Positions 14,098 through 40,793 of a DNA stretch of 64,000 nt are shown here, piece by piece. This DNA comes from Bacillota bacterium (GTDB lineage: Bacteria > Bacillota > Clostridia > Christensenellales > SZUA-584). The number at the start of each line of letters is the position of its first letter. Position 1 is the first letter of the stretch. A program made the translations under genes and the position numbers. The stretch covers positions 135,487-199,486 of the forward strand of contig JAEWRI010000022.1 of the NCBI GenBank assembly GCA_023460085.1. The letters are read 5' to 3'. The notes under the pieces are model-generated. The model saw nothing but the letters and a program-made list of their open reading frames with translations. It did no database searches and was not told the DNA's origin.

Positions 14098-14108
14098 GTT
14101 GCCCTCCC

Positions 14109-16825: not shown

Positions 16826-16859
16826 AATCCCTGTTTCACTTTCCTTTTGCTCTGACGAT

Positions 16860-18878: not shown

Positions 18879-18918
18879 CTTTTGCTCCTCACCGTATATT
18901 TAAATTTCGATTAAACCC

Positions 18919-20478: not shown

Positions 20479-22343
20479 GCCAATTCTCTCCTTACTGAAA
20501 ACAGTTTTAAATTCTGTATCTGCTCTTCTATTTCCTTCGTATAACGGCCGTTATCCGCTATTTCGCGGTTCAGCCGCATCTTCTTTTCTTCATACATCTT
20601 CAGCGCGTCATTGTACAGCTGCGAATAGATAGCCATATAGTGTCTTGACATCTCTTCCAGTCGCGTGATGCTCTTATCAATGCATTGCACCGTCATAGGT
20701 ATACACTCGCCGGATATTCTATCCGAGATCGTGGGCAGCTGCAAACGTACTTGCTGTACAAAATCTGCCCGCGCCTTTTTCATAAACAGTTTGTCCTTGC
20801 CGAGGTACCCGACGATTCCCCCCACAACCGCGCCTATCGGCCCTCCCAATATCAGGCCGATGGCCGCTGCGCCCCCGCTTGTCAGCACGGTATTCTGCGT
20901 TTCTACTTTTGCGTAGCTTTCACGCACCTGCGCCAGCGAGCTCCCAATCTTCTCTTGGAGGGGTTGAGTCATCGCCGAGGACGCCGCATTCTGAAGCAGC
21001 GCCGCGTTGCCAATGCGTCCATAGCAGGTTTCCAGTTCCCGCTGCATATGATCCCCTGTCCAGTTTACCAGACCTTGCGCAGAGTCTGCCACCTGCTGGC
21101 TGTATCGATAGTACGCGGGCGTCTGATTGGCAATATCGCCTGCAAGACCGTCCGTCCGCGAGGCGTATACTTTAAAATCGGCATGGCTGCTGAACGCGGA
21201 GACACGGTATTCCACCGCCTGCAGCATATAGCTCTCCATCTCTCTCCGTGTCACTCGTTCATTTTCCTTATATACGCCGCGCATTTCCCACAGCCGGTTG
21301 CTCTCCTGTACCTTAATGTCGGCCAGCTTTTTGGCCAGCTGCGGCGGCGCGTTTTCTTCCAGCACCTTAAGGCTGGACTGAAGCGCCTGCGTCTGCTGCG
21401 CAACGCCATCCTTCATCACACCCAGCATCTGTCTCAGCAGCTCTGCCATACGGCAGCTCAGTATGAACTCCCGCTGCTCCCGCAGATGCGTAAAAAGTGC
21501 CTCCCGCAGTGCGTTCAACCTGCGCGCCCACACTTCGTCCTTGCCCGCAAGATACGCCGAGCAGGAAACCAGCAGCGGATCCCGAATTCCCAGCTTTTCC
21601 TGTATATTTTCTCGAACGTACTGCTCCAGTTCTTCCCGCTCGTCCTCCTCCACCCTGTCCATCATAGTGAGCACAAACACCGCATGGTTCATAAACCTTT
21701 CGGCGTTTTCCTTCAGAAACAGTTCAAAGCTGTATGTATAAGCCTGCGTAGCGGGAAAAAGGATGATTACAGAGTCCGCCGCATGTTCAAGCACCTGCTT
21801 GGTGCGCGTTACATGCAGCTCGGAATTCTCCTGACCGGGATTGACTCCGGGGGTATCGATAATGCACAGATTGCCCAGCGCGCCGCTGTCCGGCAGGAGC
21901 ACATCCACCCGCGCGGTGCGGTGCGCTACGGATTCACGAGTAGTTACTGTATTGAGGTTTTCCTTAAAATCACTGCCAAGTGTGATATTGCACACTTCGC
22001 AAAAGGACTGCGCCTCCTGCGCATCATTCAAGTGATACCGCTTTCCGTCGTTGAGTTCAATATGCAGTTCGGCGGTTTCATAAGGCCCGCCTTGAATGTA
22101 CGTGGGAATTGCCGTGGTTGCCATGATTCCGGTTTTCAGACAGTCATATCCGCAGAGCGCGTTGATCAGCGTGCTTTTTCCCGAGCTGAAGTCGCCAATA
22201 ACCGCCAGCTTCAGCGTGGTATCCGCATGCTTTTCCGCGATATCATTTCTTTGCTTTTTCAGTTCTGCCAGCGTGTCTGCCCGCCATGGAAACTCTGTAA
22301 AAAGGCGGCCGGCATACTGTATACTGCGCTCGATTTGATTCAT
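20472..22343 (-). CDS. Bacterial dynamin-like protein (DLP-1)
   Basis: G1 GDFSSGKST (22173-22196, verified on DNA), G3 DTPG and a G4-like TMMD. Helical stalk. Gly-rich hydrophobic segment GGAAAIGLILGGPIGAVVGGIVGYLG. Confidence 0.85.
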   Translation of the reverse strand: MNQIERSIQYAGRLFTEFPWRADTLAELKKQRNDIAEKHADTTLKLAVIGDFSSGKSTLINALCGYDCLKTGIMATTAIPTYIQGGPYETAELHIELNDGKRYHLNDAQEAQSFCEVCNITLGSDFKENLNTVTTRESVAHRTARVDVLLPDSGALGNLCIIDTPGVNPGQENSELHVTRTKQVLEHAADSVIILFPATQAYTYSFELFLKENAERFMNHAVFVLTMMDRVEEDEREELEQYVRENIQEKLGIRDPLLVSCSAYLAGKDEVWARRLNALREALFTHLREQREFILSCRMAELLRQMLGVMKDGVAQQTQALQSSLKVLEENAPPQLAKKLADIKVQESNRLWEMRGVYKENERVTRREMESYMLQAVEYRVSAFSSHADFKVYASRTDGLAGDIANQTPAYYRYSQQVADSAQGLVNWTGDHMQRELETCYGRIGNAALLQNAASSAMTQPLQEKIGSSLAQVRESYAKVETQNTVLTSGGAAAIGLILGGPIGAVVGGIVGYLGKDKLFMKKARADFVQQVRLQLPTISDRISGECIPMTVQCIDKSITRLEEMSRHYMAIYSQLYNDALKMYEEKKMRLNREIADNGRYTKEIEEQIQNLKLFSVRRELAC

Positions 22344-25231: not shown

Positions 25232-26077
25232 TTATCCCTCATCAAATTCTTGGAAGCCCTCGGAGCCGTCCATTGGCACGAGGGCTTCGCTGCGCTTTTC
25301 CGTTTGCATAAACTCCGTCATACAGCGCCAATAGCGCTTCGGCATGTGCGTCATGCGGCAGCGCGGATTATAGCGTTCCTTGATGCCGATGGTATCGTAA
25401 AAAAGCCGCCACAGCGCGCGAAACTCCAGTTCCTCCGCACCCGGCACAGGAGGCTCATATCCGTCAGCGCCGCAGATACGCAGCATATCGCCCTGATGCA
25501 GCAGCACCATCCGGTTCGTTCGGTCGTAAATCAGAAACCGCTCGCGCGGATACCGTGCCGCGAAGTGGCGCGCAATCATGGGCAGTATGAGGTTTTTAGG
25601 TTCTATCTGCGCTGTCAGCACGCCGCCCGAATCGGAGAAGCGCACAAACCCGGCGTAATGATCCGTTTCGCGGTTCAGCTGTGTGACCGCCACGGAAAGC
25701 GTATGAACGGTTTCGTCTGTCAGCCTGTCCATTACCGACGGCCCGTACCGGAAACCCATCCGCAGAAACTTCAGTATCAGCAGGCCCTTGTTCGGCAAGC
25801 ATGTCAGAAACGCGCGCCGCACGAAGCGCAGCGTTCTCACTCCCATACTGTCCGGAATGGCGCGCAGCACCCTGCGCGCGCGCTCCTCGTCGCTTTCAAT
25901 CGTTTTAACGCGCAGCAGCAGCGGCAGCGCGCCGTCGTCAGGCAGCACATCCGATGGCATCTCGCGCCGCTCATAGCTTTCATACACACAGCACAACAGC
26001 CCGTCGAAGCTGCCGTCATAGGCGTAGACGACAGGACCGCTTTCAATTGACGGCGCTACATCTCTCCGCTCAGGCAT
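25232..26077 (-). CDS. Probable DNA metabolism protein (TIGR03915-like partner of the DNA-repair radical SAM enzyme)
   Basis: VYAYDGSFDGLLCCVYESY N-terminus and constant pairing with the upstream radical SAM gene. ATG 26077 overlaps the upstream gene by 22 nt. Confidence 0.65.
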   Translation of the reverse strand: MPERRDVAPSIESGPVVYAYDGSFDGLLCCVYESYERREMPSDVLPDDGALPLLLRVKTIESDEERARRVLRAIPDSMGVRTLRFVRRAFLTCLPNKGLLILKFLRMGFRYGPSVMDRLTDETVHTLSVAVTQLNRETDHYAGFVRFSDSGGVLTAQIEPKNLILPMIARHFAARYPRERFLIYDRTNRMVLLHQGDMLRICGADGYEPPVPGAEELEFRALWRLFYDTIGIKERYNPRCRMTHMPKRYWRCMTEFMQTEKRSEALVPMDGSEGFQEFDEG

Positions 26078-27423
26078 TTGGCAAACTCCTCCCTCGCCAA
26101 CGCAGGCTGCTCGAACATCGATATCTGACGCGGCCTGCCCGCGTCCATGCACGACAGTGCGGGTTCCATCCTGCCCCGTGCCTGTTCGGAAACCAGCGCT
26201 GCCAGCAGCGCGTCCTGCGCGGTGTCAAAATAATCCGCGCGCTTGCCGGAGCAAGTTAAAAAGTACTGCGCGCGCTTCAGCACCACGCCCAGCTTTTTCA
26301 GCCCGGCATAGTCGAGGCTGCCAGTACGCCGGGCCGCAACGATGCGCTGTGCACTGCGGACACCCACGCCCGGTATGCGCAGCAGCGTCTCGTAGGGCGC
26401 GCGGTTGACATCCACCGGAAAAAGCTCCGGATGGCGCAACGCCCAGTTGCACTTCGGGTCCAGATACGGGTTGAAGTTGGGATTCTTTTCGTCCAGCAGC
26501 TCTGACGCGGAAAAGCCGTAAAAGCGCAGCAGCCAGTCCGCCTGGTACAGCCGATGCTCCCGAAGCAGGGGCGGCTTGGTATCCAGCGAAGGCAGCAGCG
26601 AGCTCTCCACCGTGGGAACATACGCGGAAAAGAAAACACGTTTAAGCCGATAATTCTGGTACAGCCCCTCCGTCAGGCCCAATATCTTCATATCGCTTTC
26701 ACCCGACGCGCCGACGATCATCTGCGTGCTCTGCCCCGCCGGAGCAAAGCGCGGCGCTTTGCGGCACAGCGCGCGCTCTTGTTTGCTCTGCGAAATACCA
26801 TCGCGAATCTGCCCCATCGGCCCGAGTATGGTCTTGCGCGTTTTCTCCGGTGCAAGCAGCTGCAGGCTGGCTGAGGAGGGCAGCTCAATATTGACGCTGA
26901 GCCGATCGGCCAACAGCCCTAACTGCGCCAGCAGTACCTTGTCCGCGCCGGGAATGGCCTTTGCGTGAATATAGCCGCCAAAACGGTATTCCTCCCGCAG
27001 CAGCCGCAGCGTGGCTATCATGCGCTCCACGGTAAAGTCCGGGCTGACGATGACGGAGGAACTCAGAAACAATCCTTCAATGTAGTTGCGCCGGTAGAAG
27101 GCGATGGTCAGCTCCGCAAGCTCGCGCGGCTCGAATACGGCGCGGGGCATATCGCTCGTTCTCCGGTTCACGCAATAAGCGCAATCGAAAACGCAGACGT
27201 TGGTCATCAGCACCTTCAGCAGCGAAATGCACCGACCGTCGGCGGCAAAGCTGTGACAGATGCCGCAAGCCGCCGCGCTGCCGATACCGCCCGGATCCGA
27301 CTTTCGCCGCACTCCGCTGGACGTGCACGCCACATCGTACTTGGCCGCGTCGGAGAGAATTTTCAGCTTTTCAAACAGATCCAATCCGCTCACACTCCCT
27401 GACTCCATCATACAATAGAACAC
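26056..27423 (-). CDS. Putative DNA modification/repair radical SAM protein
   Basis: LSDAAKYDVACTSSG N-terminus, CxxxCxxC (CVFDCAYCVNR) and a C-terminal HhH-like LLRIPGVGVRSAQRIV. Confidence 0.8.
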   Translation of the reverse strand: MFYCMMESGSVSGLDLFEKLKILSDAAKYDVACTSSGVRRKSDPGGIGSAAACGICHSFAADGRCISLLKVLMTNVCVFDCAYCVNRRTSDMPRAVFEPRELAELTIAFYRRNYIEGLFLSSSVIVSPDFTVERMIATLRLLREEYRFGGYIHAKAIPGADKVLLAQLGLLADRLSVNIELPSSASLQLLAPEKTRKTILGPMGQIRDGISQSKQERALCRKAPRFAPAGQSTQMIVGASGESDMKILGLTEGLYQNYRLKRVFFSAYVPTVESSLLPSLDTKPPLLREHRLYQADWLLRFYGFSASELLDEKNPNFNPYLDPKCNWALRHPELFPVDVNRAPYETLLRIPGVGVRSAQRIVAARRTGSLDYAGLKKLGVVLKRAQYFLTCSGKRADYFDTAQDALLAALVSEQARGRMEPALSCMDAGRPRQISMFEQPALAREEFAKCLSGEM

Positions 27424-28352: not shown

Positions 28353-28823
28353 CGGACATCCTCCTTTACCTCTCTGTTTCCAGCGTATTCTGGAATAATG
28401 TCCGCTATGATTTTTTCTGACATTCATACCCCGTTTCGTATGGTTATTTTCAGTACCCATTTTAATCACACTTCGATATAATGCTGCAGCAATGCTGTGC
28501 CTGCCATGTAATCCGCTCTCATCAATTTCCCGAGTTTATATTCATTATCAGCAAAGTATGAATAAGGTTATTGGATTCTACACGAAATTACGGTATACTG
28601 TTGTTGCTGCTTCAAGCGGGCAGCGCGGCATCTGTGGATGCCGTAAAAAAACGTGTGCGTCTACTCCACAACATAGGCGTACATTGTATAAAGAAGGAGG
28701 TTGTGATTTTCCGCTATTGCTTGCGGTGTCGCAGTGTGGAGACCTGCGATGAATGCTTCCGGCATCTTTTTCAGCCGGAAGTGAGAATCGGGAGAGGAGT
28801 CGAACGATTCAAAGCAAAGAGGT

Positions 28824-29948
28824 ATGGCAAAGATTTTGCTCAAAAACATCAGGAAGGTCTACGCGAAGGATGTGGTCGCGGTCGACGATTTCAATCTGGA
28901 AATCGAAGACAAAGAGTTTGTGGTGCTCGTCGGCCCGTCGGGCTGCGGCAAGTCCACCACGCTGCGCATGGTAGCGGGGTTGGAGGAGATTACCGAGGGT
29001 GAGCTCTACATCGGCGACAGACTGGTCAACGAGGTGCCGCCCAAGGATCGCGACATCGCGATGGTATTCCAGAACTACGCCCTGTACCCCCACATGTCGG
29101 TGTTCGACAACATGGCGTTCTCCCTGCAGCTTCGCAAAGTCAAAAAAGAAATCATCAAGCAAAAGGTACATGAGGCTGCGGAGATACTCAGCATTACGGA
29201 TTTGCTGGAGAGAAAGCCCAAGGCCTTGTCCGGCGGCCAGCGCCAGCGCGTCGCCATCGGCCGCGCCATCGTGCGCGAACCGAAGGTATTTCTGATGGAC
29301 GAACCGCTTTCCAACCTCGACGCCAAACTGAGAAACCAGATGCGCGCGGAGATCATCAAGCTTCGTCAGCGCATCGATACCACCTTCATCTATGTCACCC
29401 ACGACCAGACCGAAGCCATGACGCTGGGCGACCGCATTGTCATTATGAAGGATGGATATATTCAGCAGATAGGCACGCCCGAGCAGGTTTTCAACCATCC
29501 CAGCAACCTGTTTGTGGCAGGCTTCATCGGCACCCCGCAGATGAACTTCTTCCCTGCGGAGCTCATTAAAGATGCGGGCAGCTATCATGTCCGTGTTTCC
29601 GGCACGAATGTAGAGCTTCCGGAGGAAATGCAGCAGCAGCTCAAAGCCTCGGGCAAAGACGGCGGAGAAATCACGCTGGGCATCAGGCCGGAGCATATCA
29701 CCGTGGTAAACACCGGCACGCCGAATTCCATCAGTGTCAAGGTAGACGTTTCCGAAATGATGGGCAGCGAGGTTTACATCCACGTGAGCGATCAGGGCAA
29801 CGACGTTATCATCCGGATCCCCACCTCTTCCCTTCCGGAGGAGACGGGTGGCCACATCCGTAATGGCCTGGATTTGTCCATTATGATGCCCGGCAAGCTG
29901 GTTCACCTGTTCGACAAGGAAAGCGGACTCAATCTGCTGAACGATTGA
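28824..29948 (+). CDS. Sugar ABC transporter ATP-binding protein (MsmK/UgpC/MalK-like)
   Basis: Walker A GPSGCGKST, signature LSGGQRQR, Walker B FLMDEP and a C-terminal TOBE-like regulatory domain. Confidence 0.9.
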   Translation: MAKILLKNIRKVYAKDVVAVDDFNLEIEDKEFVVLVGPSGCGKSTTLRMVAGLEEITEGELYIGDRLVNEVPPKDRDIAMVFQNYALYPHMSVFDNMAFSLQLRKVKKEIIKQKVHEAAEILSITDLLERKPKALSGGQRQRVAIGRAIVREPKVFLMDEPLSNLDAKLRNQMRAEIIKLRQRIDTTFIYVTHDQTEAMTLGDRIVIMKDGYIQQIGTPEQVFNHPSNLFVAGFIGTPQMNFFPAELIKDAGSYHVRVSGTNVELPEEMQQQLKASGKDGGEITLGIRPEHITVVNTGTPNSISVKVDVSEMMGSEVYIHVSDQGNDVIIRIPTSSLPEETGGHIRNGLDLSIMMPGKLVHLFDKESGLNLLND

Positions 29949-30112
29949 ACCCCCGTATCCTGAAGCAATTTGCATTGACTTGCCCGCTGCGTGTTGTATG
30001 CGGGCAAGTCTTATGTTACAAGGCCGCCGGAACGCATTCTATTTCGCCGAATCACTGCCGTGTTCCGGAAAGCAGCGGCATCGTTTACAGCGGACAATTA
30101 CGGAGGAACTTC

Positions 30113-31426
30113 ATGAAACATCCCATATTGCAGATGATAGAGACTCGAAAGAACGGCCATCCCGTCGGAATCTATTCCGCATGCACCGCTTCAGAGCAGG
30201 TGCTGGCCGCAGTGATGGCTGCGAGCAAAAACTACGGCATCCCCGCGTTGGTGGAGGCCACGGCGAATCAGTGTAATCAGTTTGGCGGCTACACCGGCAT
30301 GACGCCCGCCGACTATGTTCGTTTCATCCACGGCATCTCGGAAAAGGCGGGATGCGATCCTTCTCTGCTCATCCTTGGCGGCGATCACCTGGGCCCGCTG
30401 ACATGGACAGGCGACGCGGAAGGCGTCGCGATGGACAAGGCCTGCGAGCTGGTACGACAGTACGTTGCGGCAGGCTTTACGAAAATCCACTTGGATACCA
30501 GCATGCGCCTCGCGGACGACGATAAAACCAAGCGTCTTCCGGACAAGGTCATCGCCGCCCGCGCCGCAAAACTGGCGCTGGTTTGCGAGCGCGAAGCTGA
30601 AAAGAACCACAATTATCCTGTCTATGTCATCGGCAGCGAGGTGCCGATTCCTGGCGGCGCACAGGAAGAGGAAGACGGCGTAGCCGTCACCACCCCGGCC
30701 GATTTTGAGGCGACCTTCGACGCGTTCCGTGCGGCCTTCCACACTGCCGGCCTGGATGACGCATTCTCCCGCGTTACGGGCGTCGTCGTGCAGCCCGGCG
30801 TTGAGTTCGGCGACGACGTGGTGCTGGAATATGATCGCCCGGCGGCAAAGGCGCTTACCGGCACGCTGTCCAAACCCCGGTACTCCGGGATCGTCTTCGA
30901 GGGACACTCGACCGACTATCAGCCCCCGCAAAAGCTTCGGGAGATGGTGGAAGACGGTATTGCGATACTCAAGGTCGGCCCGGCGCTGACGTTCTATTTT
31001 CGCGAGGCCGTATTCGCGCTGGCGGATATCGAACAGGAGCTGAACCTCCCGGATTCGTCAAACTTTAAATCGGTGCTTGAAAATCTGATGCTGGCGGAGC
31101 CGAAGGACTGGGCAAAGTACTACCGCGGAAAAGAAGCCGAGCTGAAATTCAAACGGCAGTACAGCCTGTCTGACAGAAGCCGGTATTACTTCCCCCATCC
31201 GGATATAAAGGCGGCGCTCGCAAAGCTGTACCGCAACATCGATTCGGCGCGCGTACCGGTGTCATTGCTTTCGCAGTATCTCCCGTCCGCATACGCCCGT
31301 CTCCGAAACAACGGGCTGAAAGCGCCTTACAGCGCCTCGGACCTCGCCTGCGCCCGCATTACGGACTGCATAGACGACTATCTGTACGCAACCGGATACA
31401 AGGCTCACGCCGAATATACTCTGTAG
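30113..31426 (+). CDS. GatZ/KbaZ-family protein (tagatose-bisphosphate aldolase non-catalytic subunit / sugar-phosphate epimerase-like)
   Basis: MKHPILQMIETRKNGHPVGIYSACTASEQVLAAVM...ALVEATANQCNQFGGYTGMTPADY is typical of the family. ATG 30113 follows a GGAGGA SD. Confidence 0.8.
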   Translation: MKHPILQMIETRKNGHPVGIYSACTASEQVLAAVMAASKNYGIPALVEATANQCNQFGGYTGMTPADYVRFIHGISEKAGCDPSLLILGGDHLGPLTWTGDAEGVAMDKACELVRQYVAAGFTKIHLDTSMRLADDDKTKRLPDKVIAARAAKLALVCEREAEKNHNYPVYVIGSEVPIPGGAQEEEDGVAVTTPADFEATFDAFRAAFHTAGLDDAFSRVTGVVVQPGVEFGDDVVLEYDRPAAKALTGTLSKPRYSGIVFEGHSTDYQPPQKLREMVEDGIAILKVGPALTFYFREAVFALADIEQELNLPDSSNFKSVLENLMLAEPKDWAKYYRGKEAELKFKRQYSLSDRSRYYFPHPDIKAALAKLYRNIDSARVPVSLLSQYLPSAYARLRNNGLKAPYSASDLACARITDCIDDYLYATGYKAHAEYTL

Positions 31427-31720
31427 CTTCATCTGTCTTGCCGGGCCGGGTTTGCCATTGCGCAACACCTGGCCTTTTATTATAGGCCGCAGCTTCCGTC
31501 GGCATTATGTTGAGCTGGTTAATTGAGCTCATATATCATTGATGGCTGCTATTCGGCGTAAGATCATACCGGGCGTAAATTTATGCTTCTCACTCGTTAT
31601 TCATGCTTTGTTCATGTTATCTGTATAGAAAAATCAACACTTTTGTGTATGAATATCGGAAAATGAAGATTGAGCGGGCACCACTTCGGGTATATGCTAA
31701 CGGTAAAAGGAGGTATGACC

Positions 31721-33040
31721 ATGAAGAAAAAATTGTTGGCTATTGTGCTCGCGGGTATTCTTTTGTTGTCGTTCCCAATGATGTTCTCTGCTTGCGGCAG
31801 CAAGGAAGACGCCCAAAGCAGCGGCAGTTCTTCGGTTGAAAAGACCGGAGAGAAGATCACTGTCATTCTGCCCAAGCATGAGATGGATACCGTAGGTTTT
31901 CATGAGGAGATGACACGCAAGTTCGAACAGGAAACCGGCATTGAGGTGGAGCTCATCAACGAGAGCTGGGAAAACGTTGCCGACAGCATCATGACCGACC
32001 TGACATCGGGCGGCGGAACCTATGATGTGATTGAGTTTGACAACGCGTGGGTTCAGAAGTTCTATGAGAACGACTGGCTGGAACCGCTCAACAGCTACGC
32101 CTCGGACGAAATCATGAACGGCATGCTGCCCGGTCTCATCGACAAGTTCTCTGTGGACGGCAACCTTTACGGTATCGCCTGGAACAATGATACGCGTTTC
32201 TTCATGTACAACGCGCAGATGCTTACGGATGCCGGTTACGACGCTCCCCCGGAAACCTGGACCGAACTCGTGGAGATGTCCAAGACGATGCAGGCGAATG
32301 GCTTACCGTATGGCTTCATCGACTCGTACATGAACCAGCAGACCGGAAGCAACGAGATCACATACCTGGTTTACTCCTTCGGCGGACAGCTCTTTGACGA
32401 AGAGGGCAACCCGGTGATGGCAAGCGATCCCAAAACGAAGGCGGCCTTCGAATTCCTCGTGAACGCGATGAATACCGACAAAGTGGCGGATCCGGCTTCT
32501 CTGACAGCGGACTACGAGACGGTTGCCAACGTATTCTGCACCGGCGGTTCGGCATTCATACTTCAGGCCTGGCCGGGCGTTTACTCGCTGGCGAACGACC
32601 CCGAATCCTCCTCCATCGTGGATCAGATTGCGGTCGCAAATTCGGCTATCCACGCGGACGGTGAGGATCAGGTGGTTCTGACGCTGCCCGAAGCTATGGC
32701 AATACCGAAAACCTCTCAGCACAAGGATGCTGCATGGCAGTACATCCAGTACATGTCCAGCAAGGAATTTGACAAGCAGAGAGCCATGACCATCGGCGCG
32801 CTGCCCATCTGGACGGACTTGTTCTCCGATGAGGAACTGCTTGCGAAGTATCCTTACTGGGCTAATTTCGCGGGCCAGATCGCATCCTCTACCGGTCTGC
32901 CGAACCTGACCTGGTACGACGAGTACTCCAACGTATTGATGACAGAGACGCAGAAGATGCTTCTGGGACAAATCTCCGTGGATGAAGGACTCCAGAATAT
33001 TCAGAATCAATGCCTTGAACTGAAGGAAGAGAATTCCTAA
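31721..33040 (+). CDS. Sugar ABC transporter substrate-binding lipoprotein (SBP family 1)
   Basis: Signal peptide with lipobox MKKKLLAIVLAGILLLSFPMMFSAC. ATG 31721 follows an AAAGGAGG SD. Confidence 0.85.
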   Translation: MKKKLLAIVLAGILLLSFPMMFSACGSKEDAQSSGSSSVEKTGEKITVILPKHEMDTVGFHEEMTRKFEQETGIEVELINESWENVADSIMTDLTSGGGTYDVIEFDNAWVQKFYENDWLEPLNSYASDEIMNGMLPGLIDKFSVDGNLYGIAWNNDTRFFMYNAQMLTDAGYDAPPETWTELVEMSKTMQANGLPYGFIDSYMNQQTGSNEITYLVYSFGGQLFDEEGNPVMASDPKTKAAFEFLVNAMNTDKVADPASLTADYETVANVFCTGGSAFILQAWPGVYSLANDPESSSIVDQIAVANSAIHADGEDQVVLTLPEAMAIPKTSQHKDAAWQYIQYMSSKEFDKQRAMTIGALPIWTDLFSDEELLAKYPYWANFAGQIASSTGLPNLTWYDEYSNVLMTETQKMLLGQISVDEGLQNIQNQCLELKEENS

Positions 33041-33056
33041 AAATCATCTTTGCAGA

Positions 33057-33089
33057 ACACAGGCGGGCGGCAATACTGCCCGCCTGTGT
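33057..33089 (+). promoter_or_regulatory. Intercistronic 12-bp perfect stem-loop after the SBP gene
   Basis: acacaggcgggc(33057-33068)/gcccgcctgtgt(33078-33089) with a 9-nt loop and no strong T-run. This is a typical SBP-mRNA stabiliser/partial terminator position. Confidence 0.5.
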
Positions 33090-33112
33090 ATTATCCTCAG
33101 GGGGAGTACACA

Positions 33113-34111
33113 ATGGCAGACAGAAAACGAAGAACGCCTTCAAGGCCCAAGGACATCAAGATTGGCGGGAGCTGGCTGGATCACCACTTTCCGCAGGCGC
33201 TGTCAGCGCCCAGCCTCATCGTCATACTGGGCGTAATGGCCGTCCCGATAATCTATTCTCTGATACTCAGTTTTTCCAAACTCAATCTTTCCGACCAAAG
33301 CATGACCTTTGTCGGTATCGACAACTATGCTGATCTCTTTACAGACAGCCGATTCCTTTCCTCTATGGGGATCACGCTGGCGTTCACCGTCATTACGGTA
33401 TTTCTTGAAATCGCGCTCGGCATCGCCATTGCGCTTGTATTAAACAAGGAATTTAAAGGGCGCGGATTTGTGCGCGGCCTTATGATACTGCCCTGGGCCC
33501 TGCCCGGTGTCGTCAACGCCATCATGTGGAAGTGGATATTCAACGCCAATTACGGACCTCTCAACGCATTCCTGACACAGACCGGCATTACGGACAATTA
33601 CCAGCTCTGGCTGGGGCAGCCGGTATCCGCGTTCTTCTGCGTGGTATTCGCGGATCTCTGGAAGGAGACGCCTTACGTTGTTCTGCTGACGATAGCGGCG
33701 CTAGCGACCATCTCAAAGGATCTGTACGAAGCCTCCTCCATTGACGGCGCGGGCGGCTGGAGATCCTTCTGGAAAATAACGCTTCCTCAAATCAAATCTG
33801 TCGTGATTGTGCTGGTCATTACCAAGGTGATTTGGGCGTTGCAGACCTATGACCTTATCTATATCATGACAGCGGGCGGGCCCGTCAACGCGACGGAATT
33901 CATCACGCTGCTCATCCAGCGAACGGCCATCAAATATAATGATTTCGGTTCCGCGTCATCGATGAGTTATATACTCTCTGTCGTATGCTTTATTCTCACG
34001 TACATCTACATCAAATTCTTTATGGGAGATGATCAAGCCGCCATCGACAGGACGCGCAAGAAAAGAAAACCGTCATTATCCGAGCGCAGAAAGAGGAGGG
34101 CCGTCATATGA
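33113..34111 (+). CDS. Sugar ABC transporter permease (MalF/UgpA-like)
   Basis: Six-TM BPD_transp_1 protein with EAA-like loop (ASSIDGAGGWRSFWKITLPQ). Confidence 0.85.
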   Translation: MADRKRRTPSRPKDIKIGGSWLDHHFPQALSAPSLIVILGVMAVPIIYSLILSFSKLNLSDQSMTFVGIDNYADLFTDSRFLSSMGITLAFTVITVFLEIALGIAIALVLNKEFKGRGFVRGLMILPWALPGVVNAIMWKWIFNANYGPLNAFLTQTGITDNYQLWLGQPVSAFFCVVFADLWKETPYVVLLTIAALATISKDLYEASSIDGAGGWRSFWKITLPQIKSVVIVLVITKVIWALQTYDLIYIMTAGGPVNATEFITLLIQRTAIKYNDFGSASSMSYILSVVCFILTYIYIKFFMGDDQAAIDRTRKKRKPSLSERRKRRAVI

Positions 34112-34974
34112 AAATCCGGACGAAGAAAAAAATCGGAAGGACCATACTGTACGCGCTTGTACTCATTATTGTGGTTTGGACTATAGCGCCATTTGCGTGG
34201 CTGATCATTGCGAGCATTTCCAACAAAAAAGATCTGATTACACGGCCGCTGAAGTGGTTTCCGGATCAGCCAACGCTGGAAAACTACAAAGCGATGCTTT
34301 TCGGGACGTCCGGCAATACCACGGACGCCGCGTCCCAATTTATGCACGCCATGCTGAACAGTCTGATTGTAGCGGCAATCGTCACCGCAGTTTCCCTGAT
34401 TGTCGGTTTGCTGGCCGCATATGCCTATTCGCGTTTCCGTTTCCGCGGGAAAAATACGCTGATGAACCTCACGATGTTTACGAGGATGATCCCCGCGGTT
34501 GCGCTCATCATCCCCATTTACATCATACTCATACGAACTGATTTGATTGATACGCTGACCGGGCTCATCATCGCATACCTCTCCTTTGTTATGCCTTACA
34601 TCGTATGGATTATGAAGGGATATATCGACGGCATACCGGTGGAACTGGAGGAATCGGCGATGATAGACGGCTGCAGCAGACTCAAAGCGTTCGTACGCAT
34701 CATCCTTCCCGTAGCAGCCACGGGACTTGCGGCGACCGTCATCTTCGCGTTCATACTTTCCTGGAACGAATTCTTCTACGCGGTAAACTTTACACAAACG
34801 TTGGATTCCAAAACGCTTCCGGTGCTTCTGACGGAGTTCTCCAGCAAGTTCGGGCCGAACTTTGTGCTGACCAGCACAGCAGGCGTCATCGCCAGCCTGC
34901 CTCCCGTACTGGTTGCGCTCATCTTCCAGAAATACATCATTTCGGGTCTGTCTTCCGGCGCGGTGAAGGGATAG
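34108..34974 (+). CDS. Sugar ABC transporter permease (MalG/UgpE-like)
   Basis: EAA loop ESAMIDGCSRLKAFVRIILP. ATGA overlap with the upstream permease. Confidence 0.9.
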   Translation: MKIRTKKKIGRTILYALVLIIVVWTIAPFAWLIIASISNKKDLITRPLKWFPDQPTLENYKAMLFGTSGNTTDAASQFMHAMLNSLIVAAIVTAVSLIVGLLAAYAYSRFRFRGKNTLMNLTMFTRMIPAVALIIPIYIILIRTDLIDTLTGLIIAYLSFVMPYIVWIMKGYIDGIPVELEESAMIDGCSRLKAFVRIILPVAATGLAATVIFAFILSWNEFFYAVNFTQTLDSKTLPVLLTEFSSKFGPNFVLTSTAGVIASLPPVLVALIFQKYIISGLSSGAVKG

Positions 34975-35070
34975 CCCGAATTAACCACCGCCCCACATCA
35001 TCTTGCCGGCATGGAATCCTTCTGCCGGCAAGACTGCTTGGGTGTAGTCGCCACTGAAAGGAGAACAAGA

Positions 35071-35376
35071 ATGGCTTACAAACTGAAATTTACCCAGATT
35101 TTCAACAAAGCAGATCAGGAAGCCTTTCTGGCAATTGAGAAAAAATTCATTGAACTGGAGCATACCGATCCAACCCTGGTAAAGGGCAAGCGATATGTAC
35201 CGGTATTTGGCAGAGAAGCGACCAATACGCTGATATGGGAAGCCGACTTCCCTGCTCTGGAAGACGCGGTAGCGATGCTGAAAAAGCTTGAACAAAGCGC
35301 TGGACACGACGCGCTGCTGGAGGAACAGATTGGATACATGAAGGATTACTACATGGAAATCCTGAAAGAACTTTGA
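35071..35376 (+). CDS. Hypothetical 101-aa protein immediately upstream of the GRE activase
   Basis: ATG 35071 follows a GAAAGGAGAA SD. No family recognised. Confidence 0.5.
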   Translation: MAYKLKFTQIFNKADQEAFLAIEKKFIELEHTDPTLVKGKRYVPVFGREATNTLIWEADFPALEDAVAMLKKLEQSAGHDALLEEQIGYMKDYYMEILKEL

Positions 35377-35401
35377 GCCGCGCATACCCGCGGATTGGGA
35401 C

Positions 35402-36256
35402 ATGGAAGTTATGGCATCAGGCGTCATATTCGATATCAAGGAGTTTTCGGTCAACGATGGCCCCGGTGTCCGGCAGACCGTTTTTTTCAAGGGCTGTCCG
35501 CTTCGGTGTGCCTGGTGCCACAACCCGGAAGGACTGGAGCAGGCCCCGCAATTGCTGGTTCGATACACCGAGTGCGTGCACTGCGGCATGTGCAAAAGCG
35601 TATGCACGCACGACCCATGCATCGCCTGCGGAGACTGCGTGTCCGTTTGCCCGTTGAGACTGCGCTCCGTTTGCGGCGAGACACTCTCCTCCCTCGAACT
35701 GGCGGCCCGGCTTGCCAAAGACGCTGAAATTTACGCCGGAATGCAGGGCGGTGTCACCTTCTCCGGCGGAGAGCCTTTGATGCAGCCTTTGTTTCTGTTG
35801 GAAACCCTGAAGCTGCTGCGGGGATATCACCGCGCGGTTGAAACGTGCGGTTACGCATCGGAAGAAATTTTTTCTGAAATCATGGAAGAAGCCGATCTCA
35901 TCATGCTGGACATCAAGCTGGCGGATCCGCTGCTTCACAAGCGGTATACCGGCGTCAGCAACCAAATGATACTGAACAATCTGGAACTGCTGAAAGCCGG
36001 CACAAAGGCATTTATCGTCCGCATCCCGCTTATCCCGGGTGTCAATGATGACCCCGGAAATCTGCGGGCTTGCGCGGCGCTGCTGAAAGGCGCTAAGTCG
36101 CTTCAGCGCGCAGAGCTTCTCCCCTACAACCGGCTTGCGGGTGCCAAATATGCCTTGCTGGGCCGGAAATATGCGCCGGCTTTTAATACGGAGCAATCAG
36201 TCAACGCCGACATCAACATATTCCATAAAAACGGTATAGAAATTATTTTATATTGA
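35402..36256 (+). CDS. Glycyl-radical enzyme activating protein (radical SAM)
   Basis: DGPGVRQTVFFKGCPLRCAWCHNPE (CxxxCxxC) plus a ferredoxin-like Cys cluster CVHCGMCKSVC...CIACGDCVSVCP. Confidence 0.85.
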   Translation: MEVMASGVIFDIKEFSVNDGPGVRQTVFFKGCPLRCAWCHNPEGLEQAPQLLVRYTECVHCGMCKSVCTHDPCIACGDCVSVCPLRLRSVCGETLSSLELAARLAKDAEIYAGMQGGVTFSGGEPLMQPLFLLETLKLLRGYHRAVETCGYASEEIFSEIMEEADLIMLDIKLADPLLHKRYTGVSNQMILNNLELLKAGTKAFIVRIPLIPGVNDDPGNLRACAALLKGAKSLQRAELLPYNRLAGAKYALLGRKYAPAFNTEQSVNADINIFHKNGIEIILY

Positions 36257-36352
36257 CAGTAAAATAATGATATGCCATGCTCGACAGCGTCAGTCATATT
36301 GGTATTCGGTTGGTGAAACGTTTTTTTTGCGTTTCCCGGAAAGCAGGCAGCA

Positions 36353-38422
36353 ATGAATGACAGAATTTCCGCAATGCGCGATTTCTTTATTGTGAATAAA
36401 GAGCACCATTCTTACAGACAGGAACGTACAGATCCCTTTTTTCTCGCCGAACAGGCGCAAATGGACAATCTCAGCGATTTGGAAAGAGCCGTTCTCCGTG
36501 TTCAGTATATGCTCCGCAAGGAAAAGCCCGTCGTATTTCCTTTTGAGAAAATTGCCCTGATGCGCACCGTACCCGAAACGCAGCATCTCTTTACGGACCA
36601 AGAAGAACAAACACTGCGTGCCCGGCACTGGCTTCACGAGTCGGGAGATTTAAACAACATCACGCCCGACTATATGCTGTTGATCGGTCTGGGATTCGAA
36701 GGGGCAAAGGCGGAAATCGAAAAATCGCGTCTGCGGTTTTCCGAAGATGCCCAAAAACAGCGGTTTCTCTCGGCGATGGAAGAAATGCTGAGCCTCATGC
36801 AGGAACTGGCAGATAAATATCAGGCGAAGGCGCAGGAAGTTGGAAACATAACCGTCGCAAACACGTTCTCGCGGATTCCCGCCCGCCCTGCGGAAACCCT
36901 GCTGGAAGCCATGCAGTTCTTCCGGCTGCTGCATTACGGCATGTGGTGCGCCAACAACTATCAGGTAACGATAGGCCGTGCAGATCAATACCTCTATCCG
37001 TATTACGTCAGCGATATGGCCAGCGGCAGGTACACAAGAGAAGAAATGCTTGAATTGGTTGAAGAGTTCTTTCTCTCCTTTAACCGCGACAGCGACCTGT
37101 ATGACGGTGTGCAGCAGGGCGATAACGGCCAGACGCTGGTTCTCGGCGGTTTAAATGAAGATGGCTCGGACAGCTTCAACGATCTCTCCGAGCTCATGCT
37201 TACAGCCAGTCTGGAACTGCGGCTGATAGACCCGAAGGTCAACCTGCGCGTCAGTTCCAAAACGCCGCTCAGCCGATTCATAGAAGCCACCAAAATGACA
37301 CGCCAGGGTCTTGGTTTTCCGCAATACATGAACGACGATATCAACATCCCTGCGTTGATTCGCTGGGGGTACGACCGGGCCGACGCCTGTAATTATTCCG
37401 TCGCAGCCTGCTGGGAACTCATCATCCCCGGGAAGGGCGCGGATATTCCGAACGCGGACGCGCTTTCCTTTGCGAAGGTGGTGCGCTCCGCGGCGCTGGA
37501 AAAGTTGGAATCGTGCGACACCTACGAAGAATTCGAAGCCGCCGTTCAAGCGGAACTGCGCGCCGAGACGGAGGATATGATTGAGAAAGCGTCGAAATTA
37601 TATATGATCCCCTCCCCTATGCTTTCGCTTACGATGACAGGCTGTATACAGAGCGCGACAGACGCGGTATACGCATGCCAATACAGAAATATCGGCTTTC
37701 ACGGCCCCGGTCTTTCCACTGCGGCCGACTCCATGGCAGCCATAAAACACTTCGTTTACGATACCCGTACCGTTTCCCCACATACGCTTGTACAAGCGCT
37801 TCTGCGCAATTATGAAGGGGATAAGGCACTAATGATCCGGTTGAGGTATGACGCCCCTAAAATGGGCAGCGACGACAGCAGCGTCGATTCCATCAGTGTC
37901 ATGCTTCTGGATACCTTCGCTGCCGCGTTGCAGGGAAAAACGAACGAGCGCGGCGGCATTTACCGGGCGGGGACGGCATCCGCAATGTATTACATGTGGT
38001 ACGGCAACAAACTGGGCGCCACGCCTGACGGAAGGCGAGAGGGCGAACCGCTCCCGTGCAACTATTCGCCCAGCCTTTTTGCCAAAACTCCCGGCCCTGT
38101 CTCCGTCATCAAATCGTTTACAAAGCAGCACCTGTTACAAGCCGCAAACGGCGGACCCCTCACCCTGGAGCTGCATGATACCGTTTTTCGCGCACCTGAC
38201 AGCCTTGAGAAGGTGGCAATGCTCGTAAAGCTGTTTATCGATCGCGGAGGCCATCAGCTGCAAATCAATGCTGTTAACCGCGAAGCGATGCTGGACGCGC
38301 AGAACAGCCCGGAAAGATATCGGAATATGATCGTGCGCGTGTGGGGCTGGAGCGGCTATTTTGTGGAGCTGGACAAAGAATATCAGGATCAGATCATTCA
38401 GCGAACGGAATACGCGATTTAA
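36353..38422 (+). CDS. Short glycyl radical enzyme (PFL2/glycerol-dehydratase-like eliminase class), substrate unknown
   Basis: C-terminal glycyl radical motif RVWGWSGYF (Gly codon 38345-38347). Cys loop AACWE (Cys353 codon 37409-37411, with Glu at +2). Only 689 aa. Confidence 0.8.
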   Translation: MNDRISAMRDFFIVNKEHHSYRQERTDPFFLAEQAQMDNLSDLERAVLRVQYMLRKEKPVVFPFEKIALMRTVPETQHLFTDQEEQTLRARHWLHESGDLNNITPDYMLLIGLGFEGAKAEIEKSRLRFSEDAQKQRFLSAMEEMLSLMQELADKYQAKAQEVGNITVANTFSRIPARPAETLLEAMQFFRLLHYGMWCANNYQVTIGRADQYLYPYYVSDMASGRYTREEMLELVEEFFLSFNRDSDLYDGVQQGDNGQTLVLGGLNEDGSDSFNDLSELMLTASLELRLIDPKVNLRVSSKTPLSRFIEATKMTRQGLGFPQYMNDDINIPALIRWGYDRADACNYSVAACWELIIPGKGADIPNADALSFAKVVRSAALEKLESCDTYEEFEAAVQAELRAETEDMIEKASKLYMIPSPMLSLTMTGCIQSATDAVYACQYRNIGFHGPGLSTAADSMAAIKHFVYDTRTVSPHTLVQALLRNYEGDKALMIRLRYDAPKMGSDDSSVDSISVMLLDTFAAALQGKTNERGGIYRAGTASAMYYMWYGNKLGATPDGRREGEPLPCNYSPSLFAKTPGPVSVIKSFTKQHLLQAANGGPLTLELHDTVFRAPDSLEKVAMLVKLFIDRGGHQLQINAVNREAMLDAQNSPERYRNMIVRVWGWSGYFVELDKEYQDQIIQRTEYAI

Positions 38423-38459
38423 CTAACGTACAGCTGCTTAACCGGACTGAACGGAGCAA

Positions 38460-40793
38460 ATGATGAATAAACTGTTGAGCCATGGAAAAAGCGTCATTCT
38501 GGCATGGATTTTATCCTATATGCTGATCATTGTACTTGCCGTTTTGGGCAACCTTTTTACCACAAACCGTTTCGCCAACTCTTTCAAGGAACAGATATTT
38601 AAGGATACTGCCGAGGCATTATATCATGCCAGCGCAAACGCGGACGACCGCATGCGCGATATTAAGAAAACCGCCCACCTGATTGGGGCCAACTCAAATC
38701 TGAATCGATTGCTGAGCGACAATAACGGAAGTACTACTGCCATCGATTACAACAGCTTTATAACCGAGTTACGCAGCTATCAGGTGGCCAACAGTTTTAT
38801 CAAGTATATATACGTATTTCCCGACAACACAGATAATGTTATATCTACTACTTTCGTTCGGGATTCCGCTTATCGTGAACAACTGCTTTCGCAATATTCC
38901 CTTGCGGACGGTGAGGATATTTCTGACGTCATTCGCGCGCCCCATTACGGTGATTTTCTGTCCATGATTGAATATGAACGGCCCTCCTCCTCCTCTTCTG
39001 TTGTAACCTATCTGCAGTCTCTGCCCGCGAACACGACCAAGCGCGTAGATGGTACGCTGATGCTGGTGATGGACAGCTCCTCCCTGCTTGCGTCCCTCAG
39101 TGCTGACATCTGGTACGATGGCAGCCATATCATAGTGATGGATAGCGGCAACAACATTATAGCCGCCAATTCCGCAGTCGACCTTGACGGAGTAGTAAGC
39201 TACGATATGCTGGAAGGCAGCCCGGACAGATTCGATATTAAGTTGAATGGGGAAGAACACACTGTGCTTCAAGCGACATCAGAAGTGAACACATGGAAAT
39301 ATATTGTCATTCTCCCTACCGAAGTAATGATACAAGATGTCAGGAACGTTCAGCGGTTTTTCCTTGAAAGCCTCATTATTACACTTGCGCTTGGATTCGT
39401 CGCCTCCATTTTCCTTGCGCGCAGAAATTATCTGCCGCTGAAAATACTGATGAAATCCGTGGAGAGCGACGCGGGTATTGCGTTTGGCGGCGGTGTAAAC
39501 GAGTTTCAATATTTGCAAACCGCCGTTACCTCCGCCCTCGCGGAAAAGGAAGCGCAAAAAAGCGCATATAAAAATCAGCTCATACGGCTGCGCTCCGGAT
39601 ACTTTGCAGGCATTATGAAGAATGAATTGGATGCCGAGCTTACAATGGACGATATGCTGAAAGCTTGCGACATCAATTTCCGTTTTGAAAAATTCGCCCT
39701 GCTGCTTATTAGTATTAAAGGGGTATATGGGAAACCTCCGGGAAGCCGCAGAGATCCCAGAGAGAAGGAGAGCAAATCCATTGTCGCCAGTGTTTTCGAG
39801 GAGTTCATCAACAAGAACCATGATGGGTTTGTAATAAACGTTGATGAAATGCAGGTGGCCGTATGGAACTTTCCCAATAACGCGACTAACCGCGAAATAC
39901 GGGATGATATACTGCATGTCACAGAGGAATGCCTTGAATTCCTGCAGAACACCTGTGATACCACAGTGACGGTAACCGCCAGTTCCCCCTTCCTGTCGCT
40001 CACGGATTTGAGCGGCGCGTACAAGGAAGTCTTCACTGGTATGGAGTACTGTGTGATTATGGGCTTAATCGGTCTGCATTTCAGCGAGGATATCCGCTAC
40101 GGACAGCTTAATACCGAGACCTACCATTACTACTATCCTCTGCAGCTTGAGATACAGATGACGAACTTGATTAAGTGCGGAGATTACGCGGGAGCGAAGC
40201 ACATACTGGACGAATTCTTCCGTGTTAATTTTGAAGAGCTCTCATTGCCGCAGCCCATTATGAAGTGCTTCATGTTCAATTTGACAAGCACGATGTTGAA
40301 GACCGTCTATGAGCTTGATATCATGGAAGAAGAATCGGAAATCTCGAATTCCATCGATCTGATGCTTTCCTGCCATTCTGTAACGGAAATATATGAAGAA
40401 GCGAAGCATGTGATGGCAGCGCTCTGCAATCATAAGGGACAGGGCTGCTCCTCGCACAGCTTCCTTTCGGAGACTCAGATATTTGTACAGAAGCATTATT
40501 CAGACGTCAATCTGAGCATTACAATGATCGCCGGGCATTTTAATCTGACGCCTTCTTACCTGTCCAAGAAATTCAAGAGTCTGACGGGTGGCGGTCTGCC
40601 GGAATATATCAATCAGGTGCGCCTGGATAAAGCCAAGTCCATGCTCATCCATACAAAATGCGGGGTTGGCGCTATCGCCACGGCATGCGGTTTTATCAAC
40701 AGCAATACCTTTATCCGTGTTTTCAAAAAATTCGAGGGGATTACGCCGCGCACCTACCGCGATACCGGAACTGCTGAACATCTGCATGACTGA
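38460..40793 (+). CDS. Membrane-anchored AraC-family regulator (YesS-like architecture)
   Basis: N-terminal TM (VILAWILSYMLIIVLAVLGNLF), a large extracytoplasmic region, a second TM, and a C-terminal AraC HTH (LSITMIAGHFNLTPSYLSKKFK...FINSNTFIRVFKKFEGITP). Confidence 0.8.
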   Translation: MMNKLLSHGKSVILAWILSYMLIIVLAVLGNLFTTNRFANSFKEQIFKDTAEALYHASANADDRMRDIKKTAHLIGANSNLNRLLSDNNGSTTAIDYNSFITELRSYQVANSFIKYIYVFPDNTDNVISTTFVRDSAYREQLLSQYSLADGEDISDVIRAPHYGDFLSMIEYERPSSSSSVVTYLQSLPANTTKRVDGTLMLVMDSSSLLASLSADIWYDGSHIIVMDSGNNIIAANSAVDLDGVVSYDMLEGSPDRFDIKLNGEEHTVLQATSEVNTWKYIVILPTEVMIQDVRNVQRFFLESLIITLALGFVASIFLARRNYLPLKILMKSVESDAGIAFGGGVNEFQYLQTAVTSALAEKEAQKSAYKNQLIRLRSGYFAGIMKNELDAELTMDDMLKACDINFRFEKFALLLISIKGVYGKPPGSRRDPREKESKSIVASVFEEFINKNHDGFVINVDEMQVAVWNFPNNATNREIRDDILHVTEECLEFLQNTCDTTVTVTASSPFLSLTDLSGAYKEVFTGMEYCVIMGLIGLHFSEDIRYGQLNTETYHYYYPLQLEIQMTNLIKCGDYAGAKHILDEFFRVNFEELSLPQPIMKCFMFNLTSTMLKTVYELDIMEEESEISNSIDLMLSCHSVTEIYEEAKHVMAALCNHKGQGCSSHSFLSETQIFVQKHYSDVNLSITMIAGHFNLTPSYLSKKFKSLTGGGLPEYINQVRLDKAKSMLIHTKCGVGAIATACGFINSNTFIRVFKKFEGITPRTYRDTGTAEHLHD

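Follow-up and report, generated by a model that had tools for sequence, protein, structure and literature searches.

A compact glycyl radical enzyme beside a sugar importer in a Clostridia bacterium represents a widespread, carbohydrate-linked family with a putative active-site signature of its own

In this work we analysed a glycyl radical enzyme (GRE) of 689 amino acids (aa), which is encoded together with its activating enzyme next to a sugar ATP-binding cassette (ABC) importer in a stretch of 64,000 nucleotides of contig JAEWRI010000022.1 from a Bacillota bacterium of the Clostridia (the whole stretch is hereafter the window, and positions are counted from its first letter; Table 1). Judged by its sequence, the enzyme fits no assigned GRE clade and carries an active-site signature of its own, and the family of compact GREs to which it belongs is firmly linked to carbohydrate genes. 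Our overall reading, to which we give a probability of roughly 0.6, is that the enzyme acts on an imported monosaccharide-sized carbohydrate, on its phosphate or on its polyol, by radical cleavage of a C-O bond.

The GRE and its dedicated activase appear to be an intact pair with all catalytic motifs. The GRE matched the Pfam families PF02901 (PFL-like, 5.6e-90) and PF01228 (Gly_radical, 5.2e-16), and the two motifs pointed out in an earlier annotation of this DNA, made from the letters without database searches (the sequence-only reading), were found at the codons given there. The glycyl radical motif RVWGWSGYF forms residues 662-670, with RVWG at 662-665 and Gly665 encoded by GGC, and the Cys loop AACWE forms residues 351-355, with Cys353 encoded by TGC (37409-37411) and Glu355 at +2. 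Cys353 was aligned with Cys433 of glycerol dehydratase (GD), Cys441 of YbiW and Cys419 of E. coli PflD, in agreement with a catalytic residue on a loop that lies between two half-barrels. The Cys positions of the activase were confirmed as well: CPLRCAWC corresponds to C32-x3-C36-x2-C39, and the two ferredoxin-like clusters that had been described correspond to two Cx2Cx2Cx3C motifs (C58/61/64/68 and C73/76/79/83). The AlphaFold model of the GRE (pLDDT 91.4, pTM 0.92) was matched by Foldseek with TMq values of 0.85-0.88 to GD, propanediol dehydratase, CutC, PflD and HypD, at 22-24% identity, so that the predicted fold is the 10-stranded barrel of the superfamily.

The sequence-only reading described this GRE as unusually short, and this holds in comparison to the characterised enzymes, as the full-length solved PFL-like GRE chains among the sequence matches in the PDB have 759-1150 aa. 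In the wider sequence space the description does not hold: shorter PDB chains (624, 687 and 739 aa) also match the GRE with E values of 1e-11 to 1e-14, and the representatives at 50% identity include many other GRE clusters of 640-745 aa, so the length is unusual only among enzymes that have been characterised. A protein search with the GRE gave 7515 relatives, of which the best 120 were almost all 686-701 aa long, with within-family scores above 840 bits. In a scan of one genome per species, homologues of 686-699 aa were present in at least 583 species genomes, and the best 80 of these species homologues were 46-76% identical to the GRE, mostly with near full-length alignment. Among the carriers are Hungatella hathewayi, Eisenbergiella tayi, Clostridium symbiosum, Enterocloster, Blautia, Treponema and Robinsoniella peoriensis; cultured ones found in the scan are H. 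hathewayi DSM 13479, E. tayi DSM 26961, Diplocloster modestus, Acetatifactor aquisgranensis DSM 110981, Enterocloster hominis and Ructibacterium gallinarum. The family is also present in genomes of Bacteroidales, Prolixibacteraceae, Lentisphaerae, Kiritimatiellia and Opitutales. A frameshifted or split N-terminus, which the sequence-only reading had named as a refuting condition, is not the source of the shortness, and a pseudogene is very improbable: the alignment of 30 homologues begins at Met1, the stop codon of the activase is separated from the GRE start by 96 nt, and the length is kept in hundreds of species. Thus, the compact length is real and inherited.

The alignment with E. coli YbiW and PflD also located the missing N-terminal elements for which the sequence-only reading had suggested to look. 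About 56 pre-barrel residues (YbiW 26-36 and 44-88) are absent from the compact GRE, and shorter deletions were found at YbiW 234-244, 339-343, 470-483, 525-529 and 648-653. Helices located ahead of the barrel build the dimer interface of other GREs, so the compact GREs, in which this region is trimmed, may differ in their oligomeric state.

With respect to the reaction class, the Cys-x-Glu motif places the enzyme, at the level of sequence, with the eliminase/isomerase type, which agrees with the eliminase-type assignment made in the sequence-only reading. According to a GRE review of June 2026, this motif is common to all GRE eliminases and isomerases. PFL-type chemistry is ruled out because the loop holds a single Cys; Ala352 precedes Cys353, whereas E. 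coli PflB has the adjacent pair Cys418-Cys419. The best solved relative of the GRE was the B12-independent GD (E 3.5e-75, 257 bits), which was also among the best matches by fold, and this, together with the common Cys-x-Glu motif, could be taken to mean that the enzyme is an ordinary member of an assigned clade, such as GD, propanediol dehydratase, HypD, CutC, YbiW/PflD or PFL. However, its identity to each characterised GRE tested was 22-28%, and it scored below the cut-offs of all the NCBIfam GRE models. For the PFL2/glycerol-dehydratase subfamily model TIGR01774, it reached 312 bits against a cut-off of 678, and for the equivalog models of HypD, HpfG, HpsG, PflD, CutC, indoleacetate decarboxylase, HPAD and PFL it reached 100-282 bits against cut-offs of about 1000-1150 bits, i.e., it lay 4-10 fold below each of them. 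In particular, it scored 100 bits against 994 for the PFL model TIGR01255, and 252 bits against 1109 for the PflD model NF007437, which is below the YbiW/PflD equivalog level. In addition, His164 and Asp447 of GD (the latter we take to be an active-site residue) are replaced by Asn102 and Asn367 in the compact enzyme. We therefore consider either form of this explanation, an ordinary member of an assigned clade or a truncated or split pseudogene, to be very improbable, and the earlier view of the protein as an uncharacterised GRE is borne out.

The family has a signature that was invariant in 30 of the 30 members compared: Asn102, the loop Q254-Q255-G-D-N-G-Q260, A351-A352-C353-W354-E355, Asn367, T604-x-E606 and R662-V-W-G-W-S-G-Y-F670. 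The full signature is kept down to about 34-36% identity in representatives of 641-709 aa, and Asn102 was retained in the sampled members that carry it. In the classical eliminases and isomerases, the corresponding motifs are GH, GC[VI]E and RVAGYSA. No paper on the compact family was found in the open-access full-text literature, although a report elsewhere is possible. Similarity networks have probably already shown clusters of this unassigned kind to GRE specialists. Among the enzymes listed in the June 2026 review there is no short GRE, and YbiW and PflD are the only ones that act on sugars.

Two other groups of sequences were noticed around the family. A sister radiation of compact GREs of 680-745 aa, with P0160, P0169, P0171, P0178-P0180, P0199, P0228 and P0231 among its members, carries the motifs GD[TN]-Q, [AG]CWE, D-x-K and RVWGFSAYF, and we know of no characterised member of it. 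Furthermore, five GRE homologues of 634-681 aa with 33-37% identity (P0159, P0163, P0164, P0168 and P0174) have neither the Cys loop nor the glycyl radical motif, and may be non-catalytic paralogues.

The comparison with known systems showed both similarities and differences. GD of Clostridium butyricum (1r8w) and propanediol dehydratase (5i2g, 9rco), the best matches by sequence and fold (TMq 0.86-0.87), resemble the compact GRE in their Cys-x-Glu loop and C-terminal glycyl radical domain, and their activase likewise has two auxiliary clusters. They are 22-24% identical to the window enzyme, which is about 100 aa shorter and, in comparison to GD, has AACWE in place of GCVE and RVWGWSGYF in place of RVAGYSA; moreover, its context is sugar transport, whereas theirs is diol metabolism. 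YbiW and PflD (8id7, 8id0, 8yjo; TMq 0.85-0.86) are the sugar-phosphate isomerases of 'anhydroglycolysis' and, like the compact GREs, they combine the CxE motif with adjacent sugar uptake genes and an aldolase. A HAD phosphatase is encoded in some short-GRE loci, and YbiV, the neighbour of YbiW, is such an enzyme too. On the other hand, YbiW and PflD are only 27-28% identical to the compact GRE, which lacks five or six of their loops besides the N-terminal residues, and has Glu606 at the position of YbiW Lys726 and PflD Lys682. Their loci encode a phosphotransferase system and an FSA-type aldolase, while the compact-GRE loci encode an ABC or major facilitator superfamily (MFS) transporter and GatZ or a class II aldolase.

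To characterise the genomic context of the family, we used the 80 best-scoring related loci, in which open reading frames (ORFs) were called with a crude custom caller, so that all counts are only indicative; the neighbouring ORFs were clustered, and the clusters were labelled with Pfam and NCBIfam. An activase was present in 71 of the 80 loci and was directly adjacent to the GRE in 68 (upstream in 40, downstream in 28). Within five genes of the GRE we found AraC regulators (26 loci), LacI-type proteins (24), Rbs-type ABC ATPases (16), GH51 arabinofuranosidases (12), permeases of the CUT1 family (10) and MFS sugar porters (9), as well as aldose 1-epimerase, AraD, FGGY kinases, GH78 and GH36 (4 loci each). 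A Pfam census of 265 neighbours no more than three genes away added five melibiases, three GH127 beta-L-arabinofuranosidases and two L-arabinose isomerases. The commonest specific theme was that of L-arabinose-related genes. In the Bacteroidota and the Planctomycetes-Verrucomicrobia-Chlamydiae (PVC) group, the core module consists of aldose epimerase, glycosidase, MFS transporter, activase and GRE, sometimes followed by a HAD phosphatase, and the Robinsoniella and Diplocloster loci add an aldo-keto reductase, a Zn-dependent alcohol dehydrogenase, a DeoC-type aldolase and an SGL lactonase-like gene. The link to sugar loci proposed for the window thus extends to the GRE family as a whole, which is firmly connected with carbohydrates. 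In three of the loci (L018, L030 and L068), we also noticed a recurrent operon of short GRE, activase, SftI/FucI-like isomerase, class II aldolase similar to fructose-bisphosphate aldolase, and XylB-like FGGY kinase, which resembles an isomerase-kinase-aldolase route of the deoxy-sugar type.

On this basis, we propose the following course of the reaction. The substrate would enter through the adjacent CUT1 ABC importer. The activase, with S-adenosylmethionine and its [4Fe-4S] cluster, would place the radical on Gly665, from which it would move to Cys353, and the resulting thiyl radical would abstract a hydrogen atom from a substrate carbon that bears a hydroxyl. This hydroxyl would then be deprotonated by Glu355, and the adjacent C-O bond (or, less likely, a C-N bond) would break. 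The product would be a deoxy-carbonyl compound, as in the GRE 1,2-eliminases and in the sugar isomerases YbiW and PflD, and it could feed ketose-phosphate and aldolase chemistry, represented by GatZ/KbaZ in the window and by class II aldolase together with FGGY and NagK-like kinases in the nearest relatives. Our leading guess is a substrate of the L-arabino/D-galacto series, which we favour because of the GH51, GH127 and alpha-galactosidase neighbours, AraA, AraD and GatZ.

Several observations weigh against this explanation. Asn102 occupies the position of the general-acid His, that is, His164 of GD, His165 of YbiW and His156 of PflD, and in GD this residue protonates the leaving hydroxyl (June 2026 review). 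Because of this replacement, the acid-base chemistry is not simply transferable from GD or YbiW/PflD, and the aligned residues indicate that it differs from that of every studied C-O cleaving GRE. The lining of the active site was itself inferred from alignments, and no biochemical study of any member of the compact family was found. The window was found to contain none of the kinase, aldolase, FGGY, PfkB and NagB-like genes that its nearest relatives have, and GatZ was present only in the window locus and in none of the other short-GRE loci examined (80). The gap of 294 nt between gatZ and the binding-protein gene holds a promoter-like site, and finally, the motifs are near-invariant though the flanking glycosidases differ (arabinofuranosidase, alpha-galactosidase, rhamnosidase).

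Since the motifs are so constant and the glycosidases are not, a small breakdown fragment common to these loci would explain the pattern equally well as one sugar. In such a case the GRE would act not on the imported sugar but on a C2-C4 fragment released by isomerase, kinase and aldolase, for instance a diol or a hydroxy-aldehyde (ethylene glycol/glycolaldehyde, glycerol or propanediol), as known GREs do with propanediol from fucose or rhamnose and with 2,3-dihydroxypropane-1-sulfonate from sulfoquinovose. Several loci do contain a transporter, an SftI/FucI-like isomerase, a class II aldolase, an FGGY kinase, activase and GRE in one run, the recurring alcohol dehydrogenase and aldo-keto reductase genes could serve to reduce an aldehyde product, and bulky Trp residues stand beside both Cys353 and Gly665. 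However, the minimal operons consist of a transporter, sometimes a kinase, activase and GRE, which suits a transported substrate better, and the polarity of the QQGDNGQ loop hints at a polyhydroxylated ligand. Microcompartments usually accompany the aldehyde-forming enzymes CutC and propanediol dehydratase, whereas the shell-protein family PF00936 was not among the top 25 neighbour families in either census. We regard a fragment substrate as unlikely.

Alternatively, the missing general-acid His could be tolerated if the leaving group were a protonated amine, which would make the enzyme a radical C-N lyase that releases ammonia from a vicinal amino alcohol of an amino sugar, in analogy to the release of trimethylamine from choline by CutC. 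The nearest relatives are indeed located beside a NagK-like kinase, a NagB-like protein, an AgaS-like SIS protein, a PfkB kinase and a KbaY-like class II aldolase, and GatZ/KbaZ/AgaZ proteins belong to the galactosamine/tagatose branch. Nevertheless, most of the 80 loci carry genes for neutral sugars (arabinose, galactosides, rhamnosides) and none for amino sugars, and the module that resembles amino-sugar genes accompanies the 101-aa protein described below and not the GRE, so we find a C-N lyase improbable. We continue to favour C-O cleavage of an imported carbohydrate.

The closest relatives of the locus bear on the question of which sugar is imported. At 60-75% GRE identity, the relatives have genes for a binding protein, two permeases, a NagK-like kinase of the BadF/BadG type, the activase and the GRE, and a relative with 75% GRE identity adds the 101-aa protein, the membrane AraC regulator, a class II ketose-bisphosphate aldolase, an XylB/LsrK-like FGGY kinase and a MelA-like GH4 alpha-galactosidase. 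PfkB, NagB-like and SIS genes are close by in the nearest-relative loci. Between the window and locus L091, the identity was 84% for the binding protein, 78% for MalK, 75% for the GRE, 70% for the regulator and 69% for the small protein; because these proteins are clearly orthologous, the same substrate is probably transported in both. The importer is complete, as had been recognised earlier, with a MalK-like ATPase (NCBIfam NF008653, 479 bits against a cut-off of 432), a CUT1 binding lipoprotein and two permeases. The matches of the binding protein in the PDB were limited to distant maltose/trehalose binders (about 1e-33) and were uninformative on the substrate.

The membrane AraC regulator was also correctly identified in the sequence-only reading: it has a C-terminal helix-turn-helix region, and two hydrophobic segments (residues 8-36 and 297-322) flank a domain of about 260 aa, which suggests that it senses an extracellular ligand or substrate. 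The regulator gene lies directly downstream of the GRE gene in the closest relatives, too. The assignment of the remaining gene to the GatZ/KbaZ family is equally secure, with a full-length match to PF08013 (profile positions 2-419 of 420), although the protein scored 486 bits against the cut-off of 569 for TIGR02810 and so did not reach the equivalog level. Its nearest solved chains were 3txv and 2fiq. The family comprises ketose-6-phosphate 4-epimerases and a non-catalytic subunit of tagatose-bisphosphate aldolase, and a partner aldolase of the GatY/KbaY type was not found in the window; the window protein may act as a ketose-6-phosphate 4-epimerase, as stand-alone members of the family do. 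GatZ fits a ketose-phosphate/tagatose theme but is not a trait of the GRE family. Tagatose and galactitol had been named among the substrates to be tried, which was overstated: as GatZ/KbaZ is specific to the window locus, tagatose/galactitol is one guess among several.

The small protein of 101 aa, described as lying immediately upstream, had been proposed as a possible accessory subunit. Its gene is immediately upstream of the activase gene and not of the GRE gene, and the proposed role was not supported by the analysis. Small proteins are encoded beside other GREs, namely HPAD gamma, BSS beta/gamma and MASS beta/gamma/delta, but these known subunits are Fe-S proteins, similar to high-potential iron-sulfur proteins, or rubredoxin-like, with metal bound by Cys. 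In contrast, the 101-aa protein is free of cysteine and has a different predicted fold, it was not found in the 80 other short-GRE loci, and its kin are mostly encoded in loci without a GRE. It had no sequence match in Pfam, NCBIfam or the PDB, and a profile search retrieved 176 clusters, all of about 100 aa and unnamed. The structural model (pLDDT 91.7) is a ferredoxin-like domain with the order beta-alpha-beta-beta-alpha-alpha-beta, for which Foldseek returned NIPSNAP proteins (TM 0.72-0.77), LsrG (about 0.63), ABM monooxygenase-like proteins and olivetolic acid cyclase. Over the NIPSNAP/ABM/LsrG barrel proteins compared (1vqy, 2gff, 3qmq), TM ranged from 0.62 to 0.77 at 8-19% identity. Rhamnose mutarotase was considered and rejected, as none was present among the top 50 Foldseek matches.

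LsrG isomerises a phosphorylated sugar-derived diketone, and its gene stands beside an FGGY kinase gene; relatives of the 101-aa protein are likewise encoded near FGGY or PfkB kinases. In loci L094, L099, L101 and L103, these relatives are located beside a NagB-like protein of about 296 aa and a PfkB kinase, with no GRE, and the NagB-like partner is 55-73% identical between these loci and L091. The surroundings of the relatives also include PIG-L or NagA-like deacetylases, aldose epimerase and sugar ABC transporters. The 101-aa protein, the NagB-like protein and the PfkB kinase thus constitute an uncharacterised three-gene sugar module. From the model, we read the 101-aa protein as a small enzyme in its own right, which would belong to a sugar or sugar-phosphate pathway and may be an isomerase or mutarotase of small molecules.

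In the window, all these genes form a co-directional cluster on the + strand at 28.6-40.8 kb, from a malK-I RNA leader through to the AraC-family regulator (Table 1). The match to the malK-I RNA spans the full model (positions 1-181), and its 3' end lies on the ATG of malK. The intergenic gaps are 164 nt between malK and gatZ, 294 nt between gatZ and the binding-protein gene, and at most 96 nt elsewhere. Promoter and terminator consensus scans of the locus gave matches at chance level, so they do not define the operon structure. Co-transcription of the transporter and the GRE as one unit is plausible, with the 294-nt gap speaking against it.

Table 1. Features of the compact GRE locus in the window.
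Feature	Position	Strand	Evidence
malK-I RNA motif (Rfam RF03069), candidate cis-regulatory leader	28646..28829	+	113.5 bits vs gathering score 60.3
MalK/UgpC-type ABC ATPase, 374 aa	28824..29948	+	Pfam ABC_tran, OB_MalK, TOBE_2
GatZ/KbaZ-family protein, 437 aa	30113..31426	+	PF08013 1e-162
CUT1-family solute-binding lipoprotein, 439 aa	31721..33040	+	SBP_bac_1, SBP_bac_8; signal peptide end ...FSAC/G (cleavage at the slash)
ABC permease 1 (MalF/UgpA-like)	33113..34111	+	BPD_transp_1
ABC permease 2 (MalG/UgpE-like)	34108..34974	+	BPD_transp_1; 4-nt overlap with permease 1
Cysteine-free 101-aa protein, ferredoxin-like alpha+beta barrel	35071..35376	+	AAAGGAG ribosome-binding site ahead; predicted fold
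GRE-activating radical SAM enzyme, 284 aa	35402..36256	+	TIGR02494 274 bits vs cut-off 174
Compact GRE, 689 aa	36353..38422	+	Pfam PFL-like and Gly_radical
Cys loop Cys353-Trp354-Glu355 (AACWE)	37409..37417	+	Codons read directly
Glycyl radical motif RVWGWSGYF, Gly665 at 38345-38347	38336..38362	+	Codons read directly
Membrane-anchored AraC-family regulator, 776/777 aa	38463..40793	+	HTH_18, HTH_AraC at residues 691-768

The cluster is preceded by an alpha/beta hydrolase gene in the opposite orientation and unrelated genes. Downstream, it is followed by an ABC-F gene (40916/40976-42529, +), the product of which scored 387.7 against a cut-off of 380 for the NCBIfam model 'ribosomal protection-like ABC-F' and is a possible antibiotic-resistance or translation factor. 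From about 42,900 to 64,000, mostly on the - strand, the GC content falls from about 0.55 to 0.31-0.38, and the genes include phage tail and lysis functions (Sipho_Gp37, Gp10_C, PTR, NLPC_P60/PG_binding_1); this region is probably a prophage that abuts the GRE locus. Elsewhere in the window, at 10816-22343 on the - strand, two dynamin-family GTPase genes (16860-18878 and 20472-22343) enclose an unannotated ORF of 519 aa (18919-20478), and a LytTR regulator and a 1110-aa HerA/DUF87-type ATPase are encoded nearby. At 25232-27423 on the - strand, a DUF4130 protein adjoins an ORF of 455 aa without a Pfam match at 1e-5; the partner of DUF4130 proteins is a putative DNA-modification radical SAM protein.

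GREs open otherwise unfermentable substrates to anaerobes, and newly assigned GRE clades have each exposed a gut-microbial pathway, as in the case of choline, hydroxyproline, sulfonates and anhydro-alditols. The window locus is one ordinary member of a family that is very widespread in gut and rumen anaerobes, is spread over at least 583 species, among them cultured gut Lachnospiraceae, spirochaetes, Bacteroidota and members of the PVC group, and is located in plant-glycan utilisation loci. Once the substrate of the family is assigned, anaerobic carbohydrate metabolism would probably gain a new reaction, and it would also become apparent how a GRE works with a trimmed N-terminal, dimer-interface region. 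The result for the small protein corrects a tempting misreading and draws attention to the module of 101-aa, NagB-like and PfkB proteins. The compact GREs are a good lead for new radical carbohydrate chemistry. Going further, and only as a tentative proposal to which we give less than even odds, the AACWE/RVWGWSGYF GREs may catalyse an undescribed radical transformation of a common plant-derived monosaccharide or a simple derivative of it; for example, a sugar, polyol or sugar phosphate of L-arabino/D-galacto configuration could be dehydrated or have its ring opened. If this were true, it would constitute a second widespread entry route of 'radical glycolysis' in gut and rumen anaerobes, with Asn in place of the catalytic His and with an acid-base chemistry different from that of every GRE eliminase studied so far.

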